NCBI GenBank assembly: GCA_030167865.1
Contig: JALAGF010001782.1
Coordinates: forward strand, 1 to 43,398
Length of the DNA stretch: 43,398 nucleotides
Direction: 5' to 3'
Source: Craspedostauros australis
Taxonomy: Eukaryota
Shown: piece by piece, positions 4,383-23,726 of the stretch
How the letters are laid out: each line of letters opens with the position of its first letter
Numbering within the stretch: the first letter of the stretch is position 1
The notes under the pieces: model-generated
Databases searched by the model: none
Told to the model about the DNA's origin: nothing
Seen by the model: the letters and a program-made list of their open reading frames with translations, nothing else
Made by a program: the position numbers and the translations under genes

Positions 4383-5250
4383 ACGCTGCAGCGTGGAGCA
4401 AAAGAAAGCGGAAGCGGAGGGTAGTCTCTACTCTCGAGAGTAGTCTGCTCTTCTCCAAATTGCAAATGTCTCGAGCACAAGTCCTCCTGCTGTAGTCGTA
4501 TGCGCATCCGTACATGAGCGTAGTCGCAACGTAAAGCATCTGTCATTCATTGTTACTCTCATCGTTGCCACCAACGTCTGCCGATTGGTGGATCGAGTGA
4601 ATGGAACCAACAACGCGGGAGGAATCGGTCGTGGTGTCTGAGCCTCGACAGATCCTCGAGATGCGCAGTGTTGGGTGCAAGAGACGTTGAAACGCAAGAG
4701 AGGGAGGCTTCGCGCAAGACTTCTCGCAGATCGTTTCCGCAGGGACGGTGTCAAGAGAGGAGAATCTTTTTGGCGCGTTCTCGATCATCCGTCAGTCCCG
4801 AATCATTTCTTTCGATATCATTATCCTTAGCGTTTATTGGTGAGAGGAGCAACAAATGGATTTTTTGTAAGAGATGAAGAATAATGCGAGTTGACGCTGG
4901 GGAGATGCGCGAAGTATCCAAATCACACAAACGAGTCTCTCACGAAGGGGAGAAACACTCCAAACAAAGAGACAAAGCGTCACAACGCAACGGCGCCATT
5001 GGATCTCCCTCCAGACACATCCTTCAGCAACGATAGATCCGCACTCAGGCACACTGGACAACTTCGTAACCATAATCACAATCACAGCAACACACAAACA
5101 CAACTTTGTGATTTCGCATTCAATTGCGACTGCACTTGCGACTGCGATTGCTATCAAAGTTGTGAAGAGCAAGATACAGGGAGCGGCCACTCGTGCAACT
5201 GATCGAAGACAACGTTCGCTACATCGAGCTGCAAGACCGACGCTCCCAAG

Positions 5251-5279
5251 ACACAAACACAAACACAAACACAAACACA
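5251..5279. repeat. (ACACAA)n microsatellite in the channel gene 5' leader
   Basis: acacaaacacaaacacaaacacaaacaca. Confidence 0.85.
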
Positions 5280-5319
5280 GGCTCAGATAAAGGAGCAACC
5301 GCAGAGGTTCCATCACAGG

Positions 5320-8300
5320 ATGACGGTTTCCAGACCACAGGAGGCGACGCCGCTGCTCACCGAAGCAGAAAGGCGCACAGCAACTCAGGAATCTCGACCA
5401 GCCGCAGCAGCAGCACCAACAGCGGCTGAACCGGCAGCAGGTTTCAGACTCGCGCTGTTCAACTTCCTGGAGGCCAAGACATCAGTCGGCAAGGTATACG
5501 AGAAGTTCATCGTTCTTCTCATCCTCGTCAACGTCTTTGCCTTCATCCTGGCGTCTCTCTTCCTTGAAGAATACAATCCGGTCGACTGGGCTGCTCGTGA
5601 GGGAGGCATTTGCGATGACACCTGCGACACCATCTGGTTTGGCAACTACAGCGACAATGGCTTGGAATTCCTGGGCATCGGATCGACCTCCGTCCTGGAG
5701 ATCTTCACGGTTGCCATCTTCAGTGTGGAGTATCTCCTGCGATTGTTGGTGGCAGACTTTGAGGATCCAAAGTTCTCCGGTCCACTCGGCAGACTGCGCT
5801 ACATCCCGACCTTCTTCTCCATGGTGGATCTCGCGTCGACGCTTCCATTCTTCGTCGATGCCTTCCTGCTTCAGGACACGGACCTGGCCGCCAGCTCCTT
5901 CCTTCGAATGTTCCGCCTCTTGAGAATGATGCGTGTCGAGGGACGCTACGACACAGCCTTGACAAGTAAGTCAGCAATCGCGCACATGCGCTGCTTCTGT
6001 TTTTCATCTTCTCGTCCAAATCACTCACGACGTCGCACCCATTCCACTGCTCCGTGCGCCACACTCACATATGTTCACATTGCCCGTACTTCTACACATG
6101 CGCACCTTCGAATGCACACCAATGCAAATACAATTGCGCAGTGGTGGATGACGTGTACGCAGCACAGAAGGGAATCTTAGGAACGGCACTCTTCGTCGGA
6201 CTGACAACCTGGCTGACAGTTTCCAGTCTCATGTACATCGTGGAGCGCCGTTCGCTCGACTTGATCTACTGCGGAGCAGCACCCGACTACTGCGGTGACA
6301 CCGACAACATCGACACCTCCTTGTGCACCATCGATGACTGGGGCATCGCGGATTGCGCCAACGCCGGCTGTCCAGCATCGGACGACTATCCCGAACCGTG
6401 CTACAATCTCTACCAGTCCATCCCGATGGCGTCCTACTACACTCTATTGAACCTTTTCGGCGAATTCCCACTCGTCGATGAGCACACCATCGGTGGAATG
6501 ATCGTCGGAACCTTGACAGCGGTTGTCGCGGTCGCCTTCTTCGCCCTGCCTGCCGGTATCATCGGCAACGGCTTCGAAGAGGAAATCGAAAAGCGACGCG
6601 CCAACGACGATGAGGCCCCAATTGTTGAGCGCGGCGGCGTCACGGCCGGTTACGAGGCCTCATCGAACACCATCAAGGGCAGGCTCTACAACTTCCTCCA
6701 CGCCATGTGCACGCCAGGTTCTGGAGGATTCGACAACTTCATCAATGTGCTCGTCGTCGGCACAGCGATGACATTCATGCTCGACACCCTCGTGTCGCTG
6801 CCATCAAACGTTCACGTTCTGTCGGACATATTCGAGCTGTTGGCAGTCAGCGTCTTCACCATCGAGTATTTGCTGCGTGTCTACTCTGCGACCGAGGACC
6901 CCAAGTACAAGGGCGTCGGAGGCCTTGTTTCCTACATGACGAACTTTCTGCCGCTGGTGGATCTCCTGAGTTTCGTGCCCTTCTGGATCGAGGTCTTCGT
7001 CACCGGGGAGCTCGTTTCGTCAGTCTCCGACTCCAGTTCGACGTGGAGCAACCTCGTCAAGTCCCTCCGCTTGCTCCGCATCCTCCGTTTCGAAAAGTAC
7101 ACGCATGCCTTCACGAGCTTCGATGATGTTCTGTCAAGAAACTCGGACGTGCTTGCTGTCACTGGATTCACGGCCTTGCTCATCTGGGTCTTCTTCGGTG
7201 CGTTCCTCTACTTCACGGAACGTGACAACCCAGACAGTGAGATGTCATCGAACTACAACACCATCCCAAATGCCATGTGGGTCACGCTCCTCAACCTCGC
7301 CGGCGAATCGCCCTTGTGCCAGTACTCCATCTGGGGCAAGATTGCCACCGGAATTTTGGGTCTCTTCGCGACAGGTGTTTTCGGCATCCCCATCGGTATT
7401 TTGGGCGCTGGATTTGAGCAGGTGGTGGAGGAAGAGAACGCGGACAACGCGGATGAGCTGCGGCGCGCAGCGCAGGCGATGAACCGTCGAAGAACCACGA
7501 TCGGCAGCACCATTGAACGCACTGCGTATCGGTTCGTCAATGGTCTGTCCGGTCAGCTCTCCGTGCTGTTCGAGAAGGGCATCTACCTCCTCATCTTCAT
7601 CGCGGTCGGCGTTGGAGTCTGGCAGACAGTCGATGGACACGAGAACGATTTCAATGAGGTCGAGCTGGCGGCAGTTGTGATCTTCACGCTGGAATACTTC
7701 ATCCGATTTATCGGAGTTGGCGCTGATCCCCAATTCGCGCCGGGACGCAATTCCATGACATCGAGGCTGCGTTTCATCTTCAGTTTCTATTCCATCATCG
7801 ATCTCTTGGCCATCGTGCCGTACTACGTCACAGTCGCCATGCCATCGTCGTTCCTCAACGAGTACGACGAGTATTTGCGCATGCTCCGTATCCTGCGTCT
7901 CGTCAAGCTCGACAAGTACATCCCGAGCATCACCCTCATCGACGATGTCATCCGGCTCAAGTTCAAGGCGCTGAGCGTCGCCTTCTACGCCGCTGTGACG
8001 CTTTGGATCCTCTTCGCATCTCTCATGTACGTCTTCGAGCACGGCGACAGGTCCAACGAGATCGACCCAGTCCCCGACTACGGATGCAACGAGTCGTGCA
8101 CCATGGCCGATCGTTTCCACAACTTCTTCGACAGCATGGTGTACACCGGCATTCATCTGACGGGAGACTACCCCATCATCACGTACAGCTGGCCGGCTCG
8201 GTTCGTCAACTTCTTCATGGTCATTTCGGCCGTCGGTGTCGTGTCGATTCCGTCCGGTCTCATCGCCTCCGGCTTCGTCGAGATCGTGCAGAGCAAATCG

Positions 8301-9395
8301 AAGGCAAGGCAGGCTCAGAGAGCGCAGCGCGCAGGAGGTCAGCCTGCAGCACCTATCGAAGGCCAGATCGGCGATGATTGGTACGAGCATGCCTACCGCG
8401 CTCTGGAAGGCGTCGATCCGCCGCCGTCCAGTTTCGGACCAACGATGGACAGGATGCAGCATGCTGTCAATGAATTCTTGAACGGAAAGGAGGACGCGGC
8501 GGGCGTCACTCGGTGGACGCTCACGGCGAAGATCTCCCGCACCTTCATTTTCATCGTGATCATTCTGAACGTCGGTGCCGTGCTTGCCGAGAGCATCCCA
8601 GCCGTGGACCAGGCGGTCGGCAACGCTCGAGGCAACGTCTTTGACGCATTCGAAGCATTCAGCGTGGTGGTGTTCGCGATGGAGTACGCCGCCAGGCTGT
8701 TCTCGGCACCCAAGAACAGAGAGGCCCTGTATTCCTCCACAGTGTATGCCACCACCTTCTTCGGAATCGTCGATTTCCTGTCCACAGCACCGTGGTTCGT
8801 GGAGCAAGGTCTGATCCACACTGGCAGTCTGAGCCGCAATGACGACAACGCCAGGATTTTCCGCATCTTCCGTATCTTCCGAATCCTCCAGCTGGAGGAC
8901 TTCATCGTCGCGTTCAGCAAGCTGGACAACGTATTCCGCGCGTCGAAGAACATCCTGAAGGCCACAGGGCTGATGGCCTTGATCATCTGGGTCGGATGCG
9001 GGGCTCTGTTCTACATCTTCGAGGAGAACAACCCGAACTGGCGATCATGCGACGACAGCATCCCACAATTCTCAGTGGAGGAGGGCACGCCAGGCTGCTA
9101 CGACTTCAACAGCACCGCCGCCTGCAACGCGTACTACCCCGACATGTGCGACCAGAAGGTGTTCACGAACATGCCGAACAGTCTGTACCTCACCGCCGTC
9201 TTTTTGGGTGGCGAATGGGGAGTTGTGGACTTCACATGGCCCGGCCGTATAGTGTGTCTCTTCCTTTGCGTTGTTGGCATCGGTCTTTACGCCATCCCGA
9301 CCGGCGCCCTGTTCGACAGCTTTGGCGCCGTTCTTGGCCTTGGTGGTGACGATGATGATGAAGAAGAAGAGGAGGAAGAGGAAGAAGCTAACTGA
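5320..9395 (+). CDS. Four-repeat (4x6TM) voltage-gated-like cation channel, about 1299 aa
   Basis: Exons 5320..5965 and 6142..9395, phase-1 intron (A|GTAAG ... GCGCAG|TG), 3900 nt. Four Ion_trans repeats, each with an S2 F-x-x-EY, an S3 (I/V)DL/DF, an Arg-rich S4 (LRMFRLLRMMR, KSLRLLRILR, LRMLRILRLVK, RIFRIFRIFRILQ), a pore helix, and an S6 (FFALPAGIIGNGF, VFGIPIGILGAGF, VVSIPSGLIASGF, LYAIPTGALFDSF). Acidic C-terminal tail. Confidence 0.9.
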
Positions 9396-13940: not shown

Positions 13941-14495
13941 TTACATTTCCCACGTGCGCATGATGGCACCGCGCTTGTTTGGATTGATCTGCACATCTGG
14001 GTTGTACGCCAGGCAGGATGCGCCCACACCGACCACAAGAAAGGCGGCAGACACCATGACTCCCATCAGCGGATAGGTGGATGGATCCGAGAACCAGTTG
14101 CGCTTGAGGGTCTCGGCCTTGTGCTTGTGCAGGAAGGTCGTGCTGGTGGAGGACTGGAATCGTCGTTGTCCCATGCTGCAACGATGAGAAAAGTGAAGAG
14201 AACGCGAAGGCGTATCATGAGGTGAGAGACAAGGCGACCGTGTTGAAGCGTTGCGCAATGTGCGTGCTATCAGCAGAAAACACGCCATCTTCCTCAAAGC
14301 AACAACAACAACAGCAGCAGCAACAACAACAACAACAACAGGACCAGGCGCGAACGAACGGCACTCCATACTATTGCACTCGATTATAATGTAATAGAAT
14401 AAACGGCAGAGAGACATTTCGTTCGCTGGATCTTTCTCTCTCCCGAACAAACGATTGACTCACAGGGCACCGCGTCGGAAGGCTGAGTTGAGCAT
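13941..14495 (-). CDS. B12D / NDUFA4(MLRQ)-like small mitochondrial membrane protein, 88 aa
   Basis: Exon 1 14495..14464 (ATG CTC AAC TCA GCC TTC CGA CGC GGT GCC CT|GTGAGT), intron 14463..14176 ending TTGCAG, exon 2 14175..13941. Product MLNSAFRRGALMGQRRFQSS...NWFSDPSTYPLMGVMVSAAFLVVGVGASCLAYNPDVQINPNKR. The YPL...NPDV pattern around one TM helix fits the B12D family, and the N-terminus is Arg-rich and presequence-like. Confidence 0.8.
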
Positions 14496-15319: not shown

Positions 15320-16459
15320 ATGGCATCCAGTGTGACAACGTACCAACCATCGAAGGACGAGACGGTCCGATTCGACCCAACCTCCATCGGTCTGCCGAAG
15401 GGATGGTCGCTGACGGATTGGTCCGATCTGAAGGGATGAGCCTGCAAGATCCCGCAAGACGAGCTGCAGACCATGCTGTCTGATTTGGACCTGGGGGATG
15501 GCAACAACCTCGGGACCGCCGACGGAAGGATCGCGCTGGATTGTTCCGTGCGCGAAACGCGTCAAGGGCACTACGTCATTTCCACCACGGATTTCTTCTT
15601 CCCGCTGGTGGACTCTCCCTACCTGCAGGGCAGGATCGGGGCTGCCAACGTGCTCAGCGATCTCTACGCCGAGGGTGTGGAGCACTGCGACTTCGTTCTC
15701 ATGCTGCTGGCCGCCTGCCGTGACATGCCGGAGGCCGAGCGCACCATCTGTACCAAGCAGATGGTCCGGGGCTTCAAGGATGCCTGCAAGGAAGCGGAGA
15801 CGCCCATCACAGGAGGTCAGACCGTGCTCAACCCATGGCCCATCATTGGAGGAATCGCGACTTCCGTCGTTGCCGAAGGAGGCTTCGTGCCGTCCGACGG
15901 TGCCAAATTGGGCCACGTCGTCGTTCTCACGAAGCCCATCGGGACGCAGATTGCGGTCAATGTGCATCAGTGGAGGAACCAGAACGGCAAGCATTGGAAG
16001 AAGATTGTGGAGAAGAACATCCTCACAGACGAGGAAGCAGATGACATGATGCACTCTGCCGTGTGCAGCATGGCCCGCCTCAACAAGAATGGCGGCAAGT
16101 TGATGATAAAGTACGGATCATCGGCAGCGACGGACGTCACCGGATTCGGTATCTTGGGACACGCGCAAAACTTGGCGGACAATCAGGTGGCCGAGGTCGG
16201 AATCGACCTCCACACGCTCCCATGCATCGCCAAGACCATGGCGGTCAACGAAGAGATTTTCAACTTTCGTCTGGGCGTTGGGTACTCCGCCGAGACGTCC
16301 GGAGGTCTCATGATATGCATGCCGGAAGACAAGGCCAGCGACTACATAAGGGAACTAGAGGCCATGGATGGCACGCCTGGCTGGATCATCGGCAAGGTGG
16401 TGGAAAGCAAGGAAAGGAAGGCTAGGATCATGGACGACTGCAAGATCCTCGAGATCTAA
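15320..16459 (+). CDS. SPS2: Selenophosphate synthetase (selenide, water dikinase), Sec-containing SPS2 type, 379 aa with in-frame UGA at codon 40
   Basis: The frame from ATG 15320 reads ...FDPTSIGLPKGWSLTDWSDLKG-TGA(15437..15439)-ACKIPQDELQTML, matching the eukaryotic SPS2 pattern W-x-LT-x-x-S-x-x-KG-U-x-CK-x-PQ. Downstream motifs: TTDFFFPLVDSPY, ANVLSDLYA, GGQTVLNPW, LTKPIGTQ, ATDVTGFGILGHA, AETSGGL. Stop TAA at 16457..16459. Confidence 0.95.
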
Positions 16460-16921
16460 GCGGTTTGGACGACACCCCATCAAGCGCGCTTGGTTCCAAG
16501 CAAGACGAAGACCGCCTTGGGTTCGACTTCACTGGACACTTTCATTGGCGTTGTGCGCTATCACGATTTCGACCTCACAACCATGGCCATAACAGTCATA
16601 TGCACAAAGATCACAGACACACCATCGCAACAATTCGGCATCGTACCATTCTCCACAAAGAGCACTCAAACCAACACACACGCACTGAACACAAACACAC
16701 CAAAAATCGCGCACATCATCCTCATTGCCGTCCAACGATACTAACAAACGACGACGACGACGACAGCAACAGTCACAATACCAACAAAATATAGTGGGAG
16801 AGGTCGCCTGGCACCATGGAGCGCGAACGCCACAGTTTCCAAAGAACATGCGAAATGCAAACAGAGACAAACATTTGATTGACGAAGCTGGCCGGTTTTA
16901 CATACGTATGGGGAAACAGGA

Positions 16922-17009
16922 CGATGATGTGCTGAATGACGAAGGATGAACCGTGGTCTGGGCTGTACTGCTCCAGACCATCTCATCTTTCCGAACAAGC
17001 ACGTCATCG
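16922..17009 (+). promoter_or_regulatory. SECIS element (type II-like) in the SPS2 3'UTR
   Basis: Helix I: CGATGATGTGCT (16922..16933) with AGCACGTCATCG (16998..17009), 12 bp including one G-U. Core: ATGAC (16936..16940) opposite CGAA (16992..16995), giving tandem G.A/A.G pairs. Helix II: GAAGGATGA (16941..16949) with TCATCTTTC (16983..16991). Apical stem: TGGTCTGG (16954..16961) with CCAGACCA (16973..16980). Confidence 0.85.
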
Positions 17010-17776
17010 GCTGATGTTGACAATCGCCTTTTGAGGAGGGGGCATGCAGCGCATTTCACTGATTTTCTCAGCTCGTCTTTCATGAAATTGCGGTGCGTGC
17101 AGCAAGCCACGTCCTTGCAATCTATTCTCCCAATAGGCCACACGTTGGCTTCATCGCGTTTCCGCTTCCGCTGGTCAGCTTGAATACCATACACAATATA
17201 CACTTTGCTTCGTCGTCTACAACAGAATATTCGTACCATGTTATGAGCTTGGAGTGCAACATCAATACTCTACGGGTAGTCCAGGTCGTACGTGTATACG
17301 TGTATGGGAGCACCAATTGGCAAACGTAGTGTTCCTCCGTTGTCAATTGTCTCCAAACAGGACGTGATGAATTACGAGCACGGCGAACTCTTTCCAACGT
17401 TGTGATGCAGTCCCCTTGTTGTCACGGCGGTGTTGAAACAAGGTCTCTACTCGTACTACTATGGTACGACCACGAGTGAGCACTAATACACTGTTGATGC
17501 CGTGGCATCCCGACAGAGCAGAGTACGAGTATGGCAGATGCATCGAAACAAAGATAGAGTTGGAAAGTATTACACATATTATATGTATTAATACTCATTG
17601 GATTCGCCCGCAACTCACGTCGTCATTGGTTCGGTGAACGAGTGGGAGAGAACGGAAAGATATCTGCCTTACTACGAGTATAGAGGAGAGTATAACTGTA
17701 GCTTGAGAACTGTAGCTTGTGTACTCTACTCTACCACGTTCTCTCTTGCTCTTGCCCTGCAGAGAGGCATTGCGTT

Positions 17777-19285
17777 CTACTCTGTCCATGACACATCTCC
17801 AATTAACAATGTATCCGACGGCAACGACCCCGTGCAGGGACTCAGCACCTCCAGCATGTCAGTATCCATATTGACCTGCTCCACCGAACAGAAACCTGCC
17901 ACGCCCGCCGTGAGCAGATCCCGCGCTCGGTTGCTTTGGCTGTAGGCATGCACGGACGCGGGATGGCAAACGGCAAGCAGTGCGTGCTTCAAGGATTCGT
18001 TGCATTCGACGTACTCCACCTGTATGGCATCCGTCGTCTGCTGCTGCGCCACCGGGAGCAATGATTTGGCAAGCGACATCGACGACAGTCTGAAGATTTT
18101 GATTTTGGAAAATTGGATCTGCAAACGGAACGGCGTGAGCTGGGGGACGAGGTTGGTTCGGTTGGCTGAAGCGCTGCCGGGCGCTTCCGATGATCTACCA
18201 GGTTGCAGGGCAGACGACGCCAGCGAAGAGACGCCCTTCTTCGATGGGTCCACCAAGTCCCCATAGAAGTACCGTTTGATCGCTCGAGACCTGCAATACC
18301 GTATGAAATCGTCGGAGCGTTTGACAACACCTCCTGACGGTTGTATGTTGAGGACCTTGAGCTCTTCGACGAACGTCGGCTTGTTCTTCTTGAAATGCCT
18401 CGTCATCTTGCTGTAGAGCTTCTCCTGACCCATGATGAGAACGATGTTGATCTTCAAGGACTCGATCGCGCTAAGCATGGGATCGTATCCATCGCGCTCG
18501 ATCCAACCGTTCGTGTTGACGACGATCCCCGAAGACCGCGCCAGGTCGTCCGCTTCCAGGCGCTTGTCAATCTTTCCCGCCAGCGCCGCCACCTGGGCCT
18601 TGAACAGATCAGCATGCAGCTTCGATGAGGAGCCATGCCACAGCACCAACGGCGTCATGGGCGTGCTCGGTGGTACGCCGGTCGTCGCGTACGTTTCCAC
18701 AGTGACGGCACCAGCCGTCATCGGCGCAACAGCAAGCGTGCCGGGGACGCTGATGGAATTGTCCATGGGGTCGAGGTCCACCCAAAGTGGCGATCTTCCC
18801 ACCTTGCAGGCATACGCGACCAGAGTTTTGGCGAGGCTCGTCTTGCCGCTCTCAGATGGACCAACGACCATGACTCGTGGACCCTGCAGCGCAGATGCCT
18901 CAACAGGAGCCCCAGTCGCAGCCGACGAAGCTGCGGCCGCCGCTTCATCCCGCATCGATTCCAGCTGCGCGTGAGTGTTGACGTAGCTGACGTTGGGATC
19001 CGTCTCCGTGCTGTCGTACACATCGATGCCGGGCGAGTCCACATCTATCACGCAACCATGCCATGTGAACAGAGCTAGCTTGACGGCACCGTCCGAGATC
19101 GTGTACTCCTTCTTCTCCGCCAACTCGCATCCCCACAGTTCGCAGCTCCCCTTCTGAAGGATGAATCGGCAGCTCTCGACGGACGATGCCAAGTGCGGCA
19201 CTTCAAACCGAAGCTCAGTCTGCGGTTCCAGCTCGAAGCGTTCGCCGATAGCCGGCGGCAGGTCGCTTGTGTCAATTTGCACCAT
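17777..19285 (-). CDS. CLP1: Clp1 polyribonucleotide 5'-hydroxyl kinase / mRNA cleavage factor subunit, 502 aa
   Basis: Intronless ORF. Motifs: ELRFEV, GSCELWGCELA, ALFTWHGC, YVNTHAQLESMR, GPRVMVVGPSESGKT (P-loop), VDLDPMDNSISVPGTL, GIVVNTNGWI, SGGVVKR, IKRYFYG, and C-terminal VAGF...VLSPCTGSLP. Confidence 0.93.
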   Translation of the reverse strand: MVQIDTSDLPPAIGERFELEPQTELRFEVPHLASSVESCRFILQKGSCELWGCELAEKKEYTISDGAVKLALFTWHGCVIDVDSPGIDVYDSTETDPNVSYVNTHAQLESMRDEAAAAASSAATGAPVEASALQGPRVMVVGPSESGKTSLAKTLVAYACKVGRSPLWVDLDPMDNSISVPGTLAVAPMTAGAVTVETYATTGVPPSTPMTPLVLWHGSSSKLHADLFKAQVAALAGKIDKRLEADDLARSSGIVVNTNGWIERDGYDPMLSAIESLKINIVLIMGQEKLYSKMTRHFKKNKPTFVEELKVLNIQPSGGVVKRSDDFIRYCRSRAIKRYFYGDLVDPSKKGVSSLASSALQPGRSSEAPGSASANRTNLVPQLTPFRLQIQFSKIKIFRLSSMSLAKSLLPVAQQQTTDAIQVEYVECNESLKHALLAVCHPASVHAYSQSNRARDLLTAGVAGFCSVEQVNMDTDMLEVLSPCTGSLPSDTLLIGDVSWTE

Positions 19286-19873
19286 CGAAGCTGAGCGATG
19301 CGATTGCGATTGCGTTTGTTGTGGATAGCTGATGTCTGCAATCTGCGCTTGCTCTCTTCCAACTGTTGCCCTGCGCTCTGTTCAATCCAATTATGCGCTC
19401 TCGCTCTCCCAGTCTCTCTCTCCGTCTGCCTGTCTTGTGCACAATGCGAGGGTGCGGAGATCCTCATTTTGTGTTTGGTTTTGTGGATGGTCTCAAACGG
19501 GATTGCCTCGTTACGACTGCTGTCGCAGTTGTTGTTGTCTTGAGCCATCCAGTTTCGTCATGGTCGCCGTTTGAGCCGAATGAGTCGGAACAGCCTCTCT
19601 TGTTTTGTCTCGTTGGCGATCCAGCGTGGAGTCCAACAAGTCATTGGCATCGCTCTGACATACGGACAGACAGGATCTCGCGCCAAATCCAACCAAACCA
19701 GAACATCAAAAATTGTGCGCAGAACGAAAAGGCATCCGCGAAAAGAACACATCATCTGCTGCTTCGTGATGGCTCTTCTTTGTTGGCATAAAACAGGAAC
19801 GAGGAGAAGAGGCACCATGCCATCTCGTCATAGTCATACCATGACAACACGGCATCCAACTACGAGTAGAAAC

Positions 19874-21796
19874 ATGGAGAAGTCAGCGGCGTTATTGGTC
19901 TCACTTCTGGCGTTGCTTGCCAGCACACAATCATGCGATGCGTTCACGGCAGTGAAGCGTACAGCAACGAGGGTGCCATCGACGGTGCCATCGACTTCGG
20001 CGCTGAGCGTTTCGACATCGCCCGAAGAAGCGATGGAGCGAACCATGAAGCAGCTGGAACGGATGAAGCGGACGCCGCAAGCACCCCAAGACGAGCCATC
20101 GAACGACCCTGAATACGAAGAGCTCTACCAGAGCTACATCAAACAACCGGCCAACGCGCTGAAAGCAGAATTGAAGAAGCGCAAGCTGCGGGTCAGTGGA
20201 CGCAAACCGGACCTCGCGAATCGATTGACGCAGCACGATCTTGGTGTCTCCGACGCGAAGAATGCTGTCGAAGAAGTCACGCCATGGGATGTCGACAGCG
20301 AGCAGTCGCAAAAGCGAATGGCCTCCTTCTGCGGCTTGAGGCTGTCCAAGGCGGCTGGAGTGGCCTTGGGCAACGCAGATTTCCAAACGCCGACCACCAT
20401 CCAAGCAGACTCGCTACCGCGTCTTGTTGAGGGTGAGTCCTTGGTGCTGCATGCCGAGACCGGAAGCGGGAAGACCCTGGCGTACCTGCTGCCGATCACG
20501 GAACAGCTGTGGCTGGATCACGAGAATGACAACATGGACGACGCGTACGCCTTCATTCTCACACCCACGCGTGAGTTGGCCGCGCAGGTTGCTGGTATCG
20601 CATCCGTCTTGGCACCACCGGGCACTGTGCGCATGGTGTCGCAGCCCACCGACCTCATGTCATCAGGCGACGCCCTGCGCGATCGCGGCGAGCAAGAGCA
20701 CGGCGGTTTGCTGGATGATGATTCGCCTGGCAGAGCGCGAGAGACCCGCTTGTACATCGGATCGGCCAAGGCCATCATGACGTCGCTCTACGGAAATGAG
20801 AAGATGCCCGCATCGCCAACGAGGAAACCGCAGGCCATGTTCCTGCTGCAGCACGTCCGGTGGCTGGTTCTGGATGAGGTCGACCGCTTGCTCAATGTCA
20901 AAAAGTCGAGAGGATATGGACCATCTTCGCCAGCGGGCAAGGCCCATGAACGACCAGCTGCTATCGTCACGGCTGCCGTGGCACGCATGACGCTCGGACG
21001 GGCGCAGATTATTGCGGCCAGCGCAACCGTGGGACGGCCCATGAAACGCGAACTCACGCGCGTGCTGGGATTGACGCCCCAGGAATGTCCCGACATCATT
21101 CACGGCACACAGGCCGGGGACGATGTCATTCCATCGCAGCAGGGCGCGCAACGCGGTGTGCATCAGAGCCGCGCCATCACCATCCCAGCGACCGTCAAGA
21201 ATTACGTCACTGCTATCGAGACCACCACTTCGGGTCAGCTCCTCACCAGCGCGTTCTTCGTCGTGAAGGGTCTCAACCTGAAGAAGGGACGCAAAATGCT
21301 CCTGGTCTTGACACGAGGTTGCGGCCTCAGCACACAGAACGCAATCGGTGCCTTGAAGCATTTCCGATGCGAACCATCGCCGACGTCCTTGCTGGATGCG
21401 TTGCAGGCGGATGGCACGGATCGCATGATCGAGAAGCATCGTCTGGTGTCCGGTGCGACAGGCATCGGAGAGTCCTCGTACTTTCAGAAGAAGAAAGCCT
21501 CTGACAGCGAGGACGGCGCAGAGGATGAAAGCGAGGATGGTTACCTGCTGGTGACAGGAGAGGACACAGTGCGAGGATTGCACCTGGACGGACTTGACGT
21601 TGTGATCGTCGTCGGACGTGCTCCTGGACCGGATGAGTACATGCACATTGCTGGCAGAACAGGACGTGCCGGTCGTCGCGGCATGGTCATCAACGTTCTA
21701 AGCAAGGAAGACACCGCCGCTGTCAAGGGATGGGAGAAGATGTTGGACACCGAGTTCGAAGAACTGGAGGTCAGGGATGTTGCCAAGCTGGACTAA
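19874..21796 (+). CDS. DEAD-box RNA helicase with N-terminal SAP domain, predicted plastid-targeted
   Basis: Intronless. Probable start MEKSAALLVSLLALLASTQSCDA|F at 19874 (in-frame ATGs also occur upstream, e.g. 19817). SAP-like LKAELKKRKLRVSGRKPDLANRL. Helicase motifs: Q motif FQTPTTIQ, AETGSGKT, PTRELAAQ, LDEVD, SAT, VRGLHL, YMHIAGRTGRAG. Confidence 0.88.
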   Translation: MEKSAALLVSLLALLASTQSCDAFTAVKRTATRVPSTVPSTSALSVSTSPEEAMERTMKQLERMKRTPQAPQDEPSNDPEYEELYQSYIKQPANALKAELKKRKLRVSGRKPDLANRLTQHDLGVSDAKNAVEEVTPWDVDSEQSQKRMASFCGLRLSKAAGVALGNADFQTPTTIQADSLPRLVEGESLVLHAETGSGKTLAYLLPITEQLWLDHENDNMDDAYAFILTPTRELAAQVAGIASVLAPPGTVRMVSQPTDLMSSGDALRDRGEQEHGGLLDDDSPGRARETRLYIGSAKAIMTSLYGNEKMPASPTRKPQAMFLLQHVRWLVLDEVDRLLNVKKSRGYGPSSPAGKAHERPAAIVTAAVARMTLGRAQIIAASATVGRPMKRELTRVLGLTPQECPDIIHGTQAGDDVIPSQQGAQRGVHQSRAITIPATVKNYVTAIETTTSGQLLTSAFFVVKGLNLKKGRKMLLVLTRGCGLSTQNAIGALKHFRCEPSPTSLLDALQADGTDRMIEKHRLVSGATGIGESSYFQKKKASDSEDGAEDESEDGYLLVTGEDTVRGLHLDGLDVVIVVGRAPGPDEYMHIAGRTGRAGRRGMVINVLSKEDTAAVKGWEKMLDTEFEELEVRDVAKLD

Positions 21797-21908
21797 GCTG
21801 AACTGAACTGAACAAGAGGAAATGAAAACTGGAGGCAATCCGCCTGCACGCAAGCGGAGACGAGTACTCGAGGGTAGAGACTAATGCAATGCAAATTTAG
21901 CTTACTGT

Positions 21909-21930
21909 AGAGAGAGAGAGAGAGAGAGAG
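21909..21930. repeat. (AG)11 microsatellite between convergent genes
   Basis: Perfect AG dinucleotide run. Confidence 0.9.
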
Positions 21931-22047
21931 CACCATACTCGCATGTATTATATGAACTGTCCTGGGTTCCAATGGATTGAATAACTCGATGGTGTACTGC
22001 GTATCTATTGGTACACTTCTACTACTTCAAGCACTATTGATGCGTGT

Positions 22048-23726
22048 TCATGCCTTGTCTGGTATGTCTTTCGTGTACTGTGCCATCCAGGATCGGTCGA
22101 TCCGATCCTTCCATGACCACATCCATTTGCCTTCCATAGAGAGGTACGATCCCTTGGATGCGATTGCATACTTGTCTCCTGTGGACACCAACCCAAGGAT
22201 GTTCGATTGTGGCACGTAAGGCTTGACTGATTCTCCAACCAACGCTCTCCAAATGTTCTCAGCCAACGGCGGTCCAGCACGCACCGCATGAACTCCGGCT
22301 TTGGCATATTGCATAAATAGAGCAGATAAACAGATGCAGTGTTGATTGAGCCATTGAGTCACCGAGTTGCTCGTACTACTACTCGTATGTACACCCACCC
22401 ACCCACCCATTCGTTCATTCATTCGTTCGTTCATGCATTCGTGGAGATACAGGAGATGCACCGGAGCCGCGCAATCATCTCTGGAGATAATCAGAAAACA
22501 ATATTGCAAGATCCAATAGGACACCGATGAACACTAAAGACATGAGAGCAAACTCGTGCTTGAACAGCAACAACAGCAACAATAGCAACAGCAACAAACA
22601 GACAGACCGAGTGCACTAAACGCATCAAGCATGGTACACGCAACTCACCTTTCGGACGTGGATGATCCACCATGCCGCAGCAATCACCGCCCGCGAACAC
22701 ACCCGGCGCGTCCACCACTTGATACGTGGATTCCACCATGAGGAATCCGTTTGCGTCGGTACGGAATGGCGTGCTTTGCGACAGCCAGCTGGCACCATCG
22801 GCCGTCGTGCATAGCAGACATTCGTCGACGATCAGATCCGAAGGTTGCAAAGCCGTCCCGCGCAATTTCAATTGCAGTCGGTCGTCGGGCAGCGTCTCAA
22901 CGTTGATGACTTCGGCAGAGTAATGCACTTGGATGTTGCGCTCCTTCAGAACACGTTGAAAACATTGGCGAACGGAATGGTTGTGCTGCTTCAACAACGA
23001 CGTGCCTCTAGTGAAAAGGACCATCTCCAATTCGATGGGATTCTGTGGTTGCTGATGTTGTTGCTGTTGTTTCGCAGTATCGTCCAACAAGCGTTGCAAG
23101 CTGTGCTGCATACTCAGGATAACTTCGATGGCGCCAGCGCCACCCCCAACGACCCCGATCCTGTGCTTGATCGGTGTGGATGCGGAAGCAGACGACGAAT
23201 TCTGTTGCAGCCGTTGCAACCGTTCCTTGAGCTCGATGTAAAAGTTGCAGAACTCGCTGATCGGCTTGACGGAGATGACCTTGGGGTTGTTGCGCAAGGA
23301 CTGCGATGCCACCGACGGAGCGCTTCCAACGTTGATGCTGAGACAATCAAAGTCGATCCTTTCGCCGTTGTCGCAGATGCAAGTTCCGCGTCTGTTGCTG
23401 TGATTGTTGCTCTGATTGTCATTGCCATCATCATTTTCTGTCGTGTGAGATGCGTCTGAATGATAGATGATCTGCATGCACGCCGCATGAATGAGCCGGA
23501 TGTTGGCATAATTGCAGATCTTGGCCAAGTCGATGTGAATGTCCTCGTAGGTATAGTGTCCCGCGATGTATCCAGGCAGCATTCCGGAGTACGGCGTCAT
23601 GATGTCCTTGGCGATGAGCACTACCTCTACATCCAGCTCCTTGAGCTGCTTCTGCTTGGACGCAAGGTGCTTGAGGACGTACACATGGGCGTGCCCTCCA
23701 CCGACAAATGCCAACGTTCTCGTCAT
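22048..23726 (-). CDS. FAD-dependent pyridine nucleotide-disulfide oxidoreductase of the 'N-terminal to SelD' type (TIGR03169-like), stand-alone, 442 aa
   Basis: Exon 1 23726..22649, intron 22648..22299 (G|GTGAGT ... CCAAAG|CC), exon 2 22298..22048, 1329 nt. Family hallmarks: VGGGHAHVYVL, TPYSGMLPGYIAGHY, HIDL, LSINVGSAP, VKPI, VVGGGAGAIE, FAGGDC, the junction-spanning HPRPKAGVHAVRAGPPLAENI, YVPQSNILGLVSTG, AIASKG and WKDRIDRSWM. Stops 11 codons after DRSWM with no SelD domain. Confidence 0.88.

Follow-up and report, generated by a model that had tools for sequence, protein, structure and literature searches.

The window analysed here is one entire contig (JALAGF010001782.1, 43,398 nucleotides) of the diatom Craspedostauros australis, whose genome assembly comprises 65.9 Mb in 6,734 contigs. 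It carries a gene for SPS2, the selenocysteine (Sec)-type selenophosphate synthetase of eukaryotes, and close to it a gene for a flavoprotein of the TIGR03169 type, the oxidoreductase domain of the Ndh-SelD fusions, which here stands free of any SelD part. A first-pass annotation had read the pair as a selenium mini-cluster, which could have arisen either through fission of the fusion with replacement of the partner, or through selection for clustering, with chance proximity as a further possibility. The comparisons reported below weaken this cluster claim; the apparently repeated in-place loss of the SelD half is a handle on the function of the SelD-fused domain.

The SPS2 and flavoprotein genes

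The features of the locus are as follows.

15320..16459, + strand: SPS2, eukaryotic Sec-type selenophosphate synthetase; intronless, 379 aa, the sole SelD-family gene found in the genome
15437..15439, + strand: in-frame TGA at codon 40, the selenocysteine position of the UxxK motif; identified from the reading frame, with the same TGA in a diatom-type SPS2 copy (L096)
16917..17013, + strand: SECIS-like hairpin in the 3' untranslated region of SPS2; folding z -7.2, within an RNA-type contig (16160-17563)
17777..19285, - strand: Clp1 (mRNA cleavage factor/RNA kinase); orthologs beside the oxidoreductase in a metagenome contig (L015) and in Phaeodactylum
19874..21796, + strand: SAP-domain DEAD-box helicase; predicted start codon, 55% identical ortholog in L015
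22649..23726, - strand: exon 1 of the free-standing TIGR03169 flavoprotein; supported by a contig joint, motifs and profile score
22299..22648, - strand: intron of 350 nt, GT..AG; contig joint 22298-22649
22048..22298, - strand: exon 2 and stop of the TIGR03169 flavoprotein; translation identical to database protein P0126

The SPS2 gene is a single frame ending at 16459, with a single in-frame TGA in the context K-G-U-A-C-K; its product contains the PF00586 and PF02769 (AIRS/AIRS_C) domains and, at 219 bits, exceeds the TIGR00476 cut-off of 125. The downstream hairpin is built of a helix I, an internal loop in which AUGA (16936) faces GA (about 16993), a short helix II of 9 bp, and a top with an apical AA and a long helix III, and none of 200 shuffled sequences folds equally well. 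We take this layout to be that of eukaryotic SECIS elements; an Rfam scan of the hairpin returned no match. A contig of sequencing run X1, which is RNA by guess only, spans the 3' end of SPS2 and the hairpin. Clp1, the helicase and the 5' portion of SPS2 are not covered by this run, a gap that is informative of nothing, and the run and P0126 possibly have one common source. The contig extends 1.1 kb beyond the SPS2 stop and 550 bases beyond the hairpin, and this stretch (window 16460-17563) is single-copy, with short open reading frames that match no Pfam family.

The window SPS2 is 68-85% identical to its 120 best homologs, several of which bear diatom labels. As in the eukaryotic Sec-type SPS2 family (clade III, according to the part of PMC6627142 available to us), it has a UxxK motif with TGA, followed by a 3' hairpin that may be its SECIS, and in comparison with that family it is unusual in position alone. 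Another diatom-type copy, with the Sec TGA and a frameshift, was observed at L096:445-1340, at the start of a 229-kb contig that is filed in a bacterial metagenome-assembled genome and is probably a misbinned eukaryotic contig.

The flavoprotein gene consists of exons 23726-22649 and 22298-22048, and a contig of run X1 joins 22298 to 22649. The exons translate exactly to P0126, of 442 aa followed by a stop, which scores 330.5 bits on TIGR03169 (Nterm_to_SelD) against a cut-off of 310; on TIGR04369 (fusion_not_SelD) it reaches 186, below the cut-off of 700. All four of the motifs previously listed for it (GGGHAH, YSGMLPG, PRPKAGVxAVR and WKDRIDRxWM) are present. The chain ends about 10 residues past the domain, within the linker of its fused relatives, and a SelD half with CxxC is absent from it, the stop following residue 442 and lying about 250 bp from the convergent helicase stop (21796). 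From stop to stop, SPS2 and the oxidoreductase are 5,588 bp apart, with Clp1 and the helicase between them and nothing else. Thus, the first-pass annotation described the structure of both genes and the content of the 5.6-kb gap correctly; it made no mention of their facing orientation or of the further free-standing copy in the genome described below.

Since the two genes converge on opposite strands, no spliced SPS2-oxidoreductase fusion is possible. Read-through or splicing of the oxidoreductase onto a SelD exon was likewise rejected, given the opposite strands, the 250 bp to the helicase and the lack of a loose contig end at the stop. Nor was a displaced SelD half found elsewhere in the genome: with SPS2, AIRS_C, a fused diatom protein and TIGR00476, four queries detected no second SelD-family gene in the assembly, which is possibly incomplete, and the fused diatom protein retrieved SPS2 as the only SelD-like sequence. 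Further AIRS_C matches on two contigs (C902 and C1111) are probably purine genes. Hence the separate oxidoreductase-SelD gene for which the earlier annotation had advised a search was not found in this genome.

Descent of the flavoprotein from an Ndh-SelD fusion

Both gene families are known already, and the Ndh-SelD fusion in diatoms has been published. Judging from the parts of the sources available to us, oxidoreductase-fused forms make up about 40% of the Cys-type SelDs in ocean metagenomes and all carry CxxC (PMC2398784), Ndh-SelD fusions reached protists by horizontal transfer, with P. tricornutum among the species listed (PMC4561486), and NADH-SPS fusions form a clade apart from the eukaryote-archaeal SPS type (PMC6627142).

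Several lines of evidence place the window flavoprotein in this fused group. Among homologs longer than 629 aa, the best 120 of 906 matches almost all contain AIRS domains. The closest full-length relatives, P0136 (48% identity) and P0137 (50%), match the domain from end to end and have a CxxC SelD after it. In three trees, the window protein is nested among fused diatom-clade rows, and the phylogeny of stand-alone against fused TIGR03169 members that had been suggested as a check thus puts it inside the fused diatom clade. Its domain is orthologous, at 44-50% identity, to the N-terminal domain of the fusions of SPS clade I (Pyr_redox_2, AIRS plus AIRS_C, with CxxC), represented by Phatr3_J48952 and Seminavis Sro699_g189470; it differs from these in having neither a SelD half nor CxxC, and in the loss of the fusion-marker residues described below. 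These comparisons identify the window flavoprotein, at the level of sequence, as the remnant of a diatom Ndh-SelD(CxxC) fusion that lost its SelD half.

The neighbouring synthetase is not the lost half, because SPS2 is only 22-28% identical to the fused SelD halves in 32 of 32 comparisons, as opposed to 68-85% to its own best homologs. Together with its TGA and TIGR00476 score, this bears out its assignment to the eukaryotic Sec-containing type. The earlier interpretation is therefore supported in one part, namely descent from a fusion with loss of SelD beside an unrelated Sec-type enzyme; for its other part, partner replacement or selected clustering, the comparisons give no support. Unlike fusion-based synthesis, selenophosphate production in C. 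australis would rest on SPS2.

Stand-alone TIGR03169 proteins also occur in bacteria, and the window protein resembles them in exceeding the family cut-off and in ending right after the domain, as do the proteins of 7 bacterial loci and of a second gene in this genome; it differs from these lines in being encoded by a eukaryotic, intron-bearing gene recently derived from a fused diatom gene. We also observed a second free-standing TIGR03169 gene in the genome (C3286:36204-37934, - strand, equivalent to L003:991-2721), whose product of 577 aa scores 312 bits. This paralog lies on a long branch among bacterial rows, outside the diatom fusion clade, is without the fusion-marker residues and has a signal-like N-terminal presequence that may target it to the plastid.

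Ancestral position of the oxidoreductase and proximity of SPS2

The position of the gene was compared with that in two other diatom genomes, Phaeodactylum and Seminavis, neither of which carries the stand-alone form, and with metagenome loci. In the Phaeodactylum annotation, as given in the part of supplement 8 of PMC5859163 available to us, the fusion Phatr3_J48952 (Pyr_redox, AIRS, AIRS_C; chr_20:127633-130097) lies 1 kb from the Clp1 gene Phatr3_J15508 (chr_20:131088-132659), and it has Clp1 and the helicase as neighbours in common with the window gene. A metagenome scan yielded at least 597 pattern matches, and of the best 80, which were kept, 79 are apparently bacterial and one is a diatom contig, L015. 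In this contig the helicase (55% identity), Clp1 (47%) and an oxidoreductase with a fused-type N-terminus stand side by side, in an order and orientation that differ from the window; its Clp1 matches P. tricornutum J15508 according to a supplement row of PMC7596299. Because the intact fusion adjoins Clp1 in Phaeodactylum, and L015 groups the helicase, Clp1 and the oxidoreductase, loss in place is indicated: by these comparisons the intact fusion once had Clp1 and the helicase as its neighbours, and the window gene is its in-place remainder, which never moved to SPS2. As a side observation, the start of the Phatr3_J48952 model appears to map to the Met of YSGMLPG within L015:4671-4962 (approximate, deduced coordinates), in which case the model would lack two features seen in L015, a short initial exon and the first of the FAD-binding motifs.

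Conserved linkage of SPS2 with the oxidoreductase was found in neither genome, SPS2 and the fusion lying on separate scaffolds in Seminavis, and no SPS2 being annotated in Phaeodactylum. The available part of the Phatr3 table contains 3 genes only with AIR-synthase domains (PurL, a PurM-type gene and the fusion) and no separate SPS2. In Seminavis, the sole species with both genes placed, the fusion is at Sro699:28474-30167 on a 52-kb scaffold, apart from SPS2, which is found at Sro1872:10321-11334 on a 21-kb scaffold, with about 10 kb on each side free of the fusion and a second copy on a 3-kb scaffold. Seminavis thus shows the unlinked orthologs that the first-pass annotation had named among the observations that would refute its reading. 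Beyond these genomes, no eukaryote-type SPS2 was detected in the best 80 metagenome loci and no SPS2 in 90 viral candidate contigs; one of 79 prokaryote genome contigs contained it (the frameshifted L096), and no Clp1 or oxidoreductase was found in that genome, which makes the case uninformative.

How surprising, then, is the proximity itself? For one named gene, the probability of lying this close to SPS2 in a genome of 65.9 Mb is about 2e-4 (4e-4 if both copies count), figures that hold for the named pair alone and make no correction for how many functionally linked pairs and windows the scan screened. If any of an assumed 30-60 selenium-related genes is admitted, such closeness is expected by chance in about 0.7-1.3% of cases.

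These low values for the named pair are one of the arguments for a selected module, in which SPS2 was brought to, or held beside, the remnant after the loss of SelD, so that selenium reduction would serve SPS2 under common regulation. In its favour one may also cite that SPS2 is the sole synthetase found in the genome, that the remnant is intact and spliced, and that the domain has been proposed as a generator of the SelD substrate (PMC2432076, in the part available). Yet the oxidoreductase stayed at its ancestral site, two unrelated housekeeping genes intervene, the convergent pair has no common promoter, and the fusion-marker residues are lost. Furthermore, SepSecS, a component of the Sec machinery (on C2406, unlinked to the window pair), and the second paralog are on other contigs, selD is found at none of 7 stand-alone bacterial loci (two of which have less than 1.2 kb downstream), and the algal selenoprotein clusters described in the available part of PMC7539508 are mostly confined to single species. 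Those clusters resemble the present pair in bringing selenium-related genes close together in one algal genome; they differ in being pairs of selenoproteins, of which, in the same source, only SELENOF-PDI is common across species, and for the SPS2 link no conservation was found here. On balance, we regard a selected module as unlikely.

Equally doubtful is the related proposal that, once a horizontally acquired fusion had lost its synthetase half, the native SPS2 was recruited or kept at the locus, and the module was thus rebuilt by non-orthologous replacement; were it true, such rebuilding in place might have been repeated in other diatom lineages without the SelD half. The partner replacement earlier envisaged does not agree with an oxidoreductase that is still at the site of the fused ancestor, beside Clp1 and the helicase, and that has lost the marker residues.

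A further alternative, to which we assign a marginally lower probability, is that both synthetases resided in the Clp1/helicase block of the pennate ancestor, after which Phaeodactylum lost SPS2, the C. australis lineage lost SelD, and Seminavis broke the block. The age of the Clp1/helicase block speaks for this, as does the reciprocal retention by which Phaeodactylum and C. australis each have one synthetase next to Clp1. On the other side stand the 10 kb around the Seminavis SPS2 that lack the fusion, the next gene there being an amidohydrolase (supplement row of PMC7335047), and the failure of window genes beyond SPS2 to map to Phaeodactylum chr_20: no member of the MLRQ (2 of 2 genes) and S41 (6 of 6 genes) families, which lie beyond SPS2 in the window, is on that chromosome, as expected if synteny breaks at or near SPS2. 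Where Clp1 lies in Seminavis was not found in two supplement sets. On chr_20 there is also a W/Y-tRNA synthetase, 43 kb away from the fusion, but its orthology with the TrpRS of the window could not be shown.

Repeated loss of the SelD half and the function of the remnant

The window gene is not a solitary case. In ten diatom-clade proteins the chain stops within about 30 residues of the TIGR03169 domain, a count that excludes proteins whose end coincides with the shared intron or with the end of a contig (e.g. P0007-P0016), their fusion state being unclear. Three of the ten have transcriptome backing (P0126, P0032, and P0024 via its cluster member P0549). In a 50-row tree, obtained by a quick search and with long branches in play, the stand-alone label needs 5 changes, of which at least 4 are forced by strong branches, and a single origin of the stand-alone forms is rejected (p-AU 0.0006). 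The sequences thus indicate that the SelD half was lost in at least four diatom lineages. A diatom-clade fusion, P0161, has a SelD half that lacks CxxC and still exceeds the TIGR00476 cut-off, and M23 is also lost from it; it is a possible intermediate in the loss of SelD.

The stand-alone proteins have eroded in a patterned way. Conservation in at least 85% of 34 fused proteins defines 134 columns; 69 of these are unaltered in all ten stand-alones, among them both glycine-rich motifs, YSGMLPG, GD, the stretch AGV-AVRAG and the K-D-R-W of the C-terminus. Each of five residues, which in the numbering of the window protein are M20, M23, G32, R122 and R125, has disappeared from at least 4 of the 5 independent lineages; 0.30 such columns are expected, and 0 of 20,000 shuffles reach this number under a null that ignores site rates. 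None of the five columns is lost in five long-branch fused controls, which were picked after the trees were seen, and in which overall loss is somewhat lower. D4, M23 and G32, a fusion marker derived in the present analysis, are kept in 52 of 52 bacterial fusions; the window protein has T4, S23 and D32, and all the marker residues (D4, M20, M23, G32, R122 and R125) are gone from it. Among the metagenome loci, a [GA]M motif is found in 53 of the 58 that are fused and in 2 of the 6 that stand alone (p 0.003, with 16 of 80 loci unclassed). From Rossmann topology, the marker residues would sit at the end of the sheet that is remote from the flavin, and the simplest reading is that the lost residues formed a SelD-touching surface, which would decay once SelD is gone.

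Could the gene then be a decaying remnant devoid of function? Its branch is long (0.62-0.67, where the median is about 0.3), and nine of the ten stand-alones retain only 80-85% of the fused-conserved columns, both of which would fit this. However, the gene is free of stops and frameshifts, correctly spliced and above the TIGR03169 cut-off, 69 columns are unchanged throughout, and the losses are concentrated in residues 1-135 (0.25, against 0.10 elsewhere), and we consider it very improbable that the protein has no function.

The predicted structure (pLDDT 88) retains the two-dinucleotide-binding fold with the FAD and NAD(P)H motifs. It superimposes on type II NADH dehydrogenases (NDH-2) with a TM-score of 0.75, at 14-17% sequence identity, and on sulfide:quinone reductases with 0.68-0.70, and the best sequence-profile matches are to FSP1/AIFM2 (E 3e-17); a search of the ESM Atlas gave bacterial FAD oxidoreductase clusters only. 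Two Rossmann folds, GD and PK-A motifs and a C-terminal helix are shared with NDH-2 and FSP1/AIFM2, whereas the GGGHAH and YSGMLPG motifs are specific to the family of the window protein. The C-terminal helix is moderately amphipathic only (0.51). Thr239-Arg240 replaces the acidic residue after the second Rossmann strand, which, by a rule that we assume to apply, suggests NADPH. C306 and C349 are invariant in 44 diatom-clade rows and present in 0 and 2, respectively, of 52 bacterial rows; because these cysteines are not kept in bacteria no family-wide redox disulfide is seen, and the cysteine pair that would mark the sulfide:quinone reductase or disulfide reductase type is not found.

Taken together, we hold it probable, though well short of certain, that a redundant SelD half was lost in place, that the remnant is an independent NDH-2/FSP1-like reductase, and that its closeness to SPS2 is an accident of rearrangement. 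Diatoms possess two selenophosphate synthetases that are unrelated to each other, namely the Sec-type SPS2 of eukaryotes and the bacterial-type Ndh-SelD(CxxC) fusion; where both occur the SelD half would be redundant, and this redundancy may have been the cause of its loss. In the C. australis lineage the SelD half would have been lost on the spot, so that only the flavoprotein half stayed next to its former neighbours, Clp1 and the helicase; SPS2 would have arrived at the edge of the old block through ordinary rearrangement, so that it probably lies next to the remnant by chance. In the fusion, the oxidoreductase may supply reduced selenium to SelD, in line with the proposal that TIGR03169-type domains generate the SelD substrate. 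The remnant probably works alone, passing hydride from NAD(P)H via FAD to a small acceptor, either a quinone or an oxidised selenium or sulfur species, and would release its product instead of docking on a synthetase. It may still reduce selenium species that diffuse to SPS2, or a quinone, and the data favour neither; a soluble selenium product feeding SPS2 would need no gene linkage.

Several points weigh against this reading. The sole synthetase of the genome is two genes away from the remnant, at the low chance probability (2e-4 to 4e-4) given above for the named pair, and a selenophosphate synthetase stands beside Clp1 in both Phaeodactylum and C. australis, an agreement that chance would not predict. 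With the fusion retained, Seminavis has no reason to hold SPS2 near and is thus a weak test of the module idea, and the presence of SPS2 in the other diatoms that bear stand-alone forms is not established. Selenoproteins are often mis-annotated, and the absence of SPS2 from Phaeodactylum rests on the published annotation. Seven of the ten stand-alones are gene calls on environmental contigs, some of which could be cut at an intron, and the SelD-facing role of the lost residues is drawn from co-variation and Rossmann topology, not from a fused structure.

In the literature searched, which covers subscription journals sparsely, we found no account of free-standing diatom remnants, of repeated loss of the SelD half or of the marker residues, and the job of the SelD-fused oxidoreductase is there proposed, with no measurement found. 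In this regard diatoms offer natural half-knockouts: Phaeodactylum has the fusion with no annotated SPS2, C. australis SPS2 and the lone domain, and Seminavis both, and P0161 adds to the series a fusion with a decayed SelD half. That the lone domain outlasts repeated loss of SelD implies that it is of use without being covalently joined to a synthetase; the residues lost convergently suggest a SelD-facing surface that can be put to the test. The neighbourhood of SPS2 itself matters only if it proves recurrent.

In the remainder of the contig, a small spliced B12D/MLRQ (NDUFA4-like) gene with a 288-nt intron (window 13944-14464, - strand) is divergent from SPS2, an ion-transport gene with four repeats occupies 5203-9395 (+ strand), and the other genes are ordinary diatom housekeeping genes, encoding an S41 protease, TrpRS, and ABC-F-like, TPR and ankyrin proteins.

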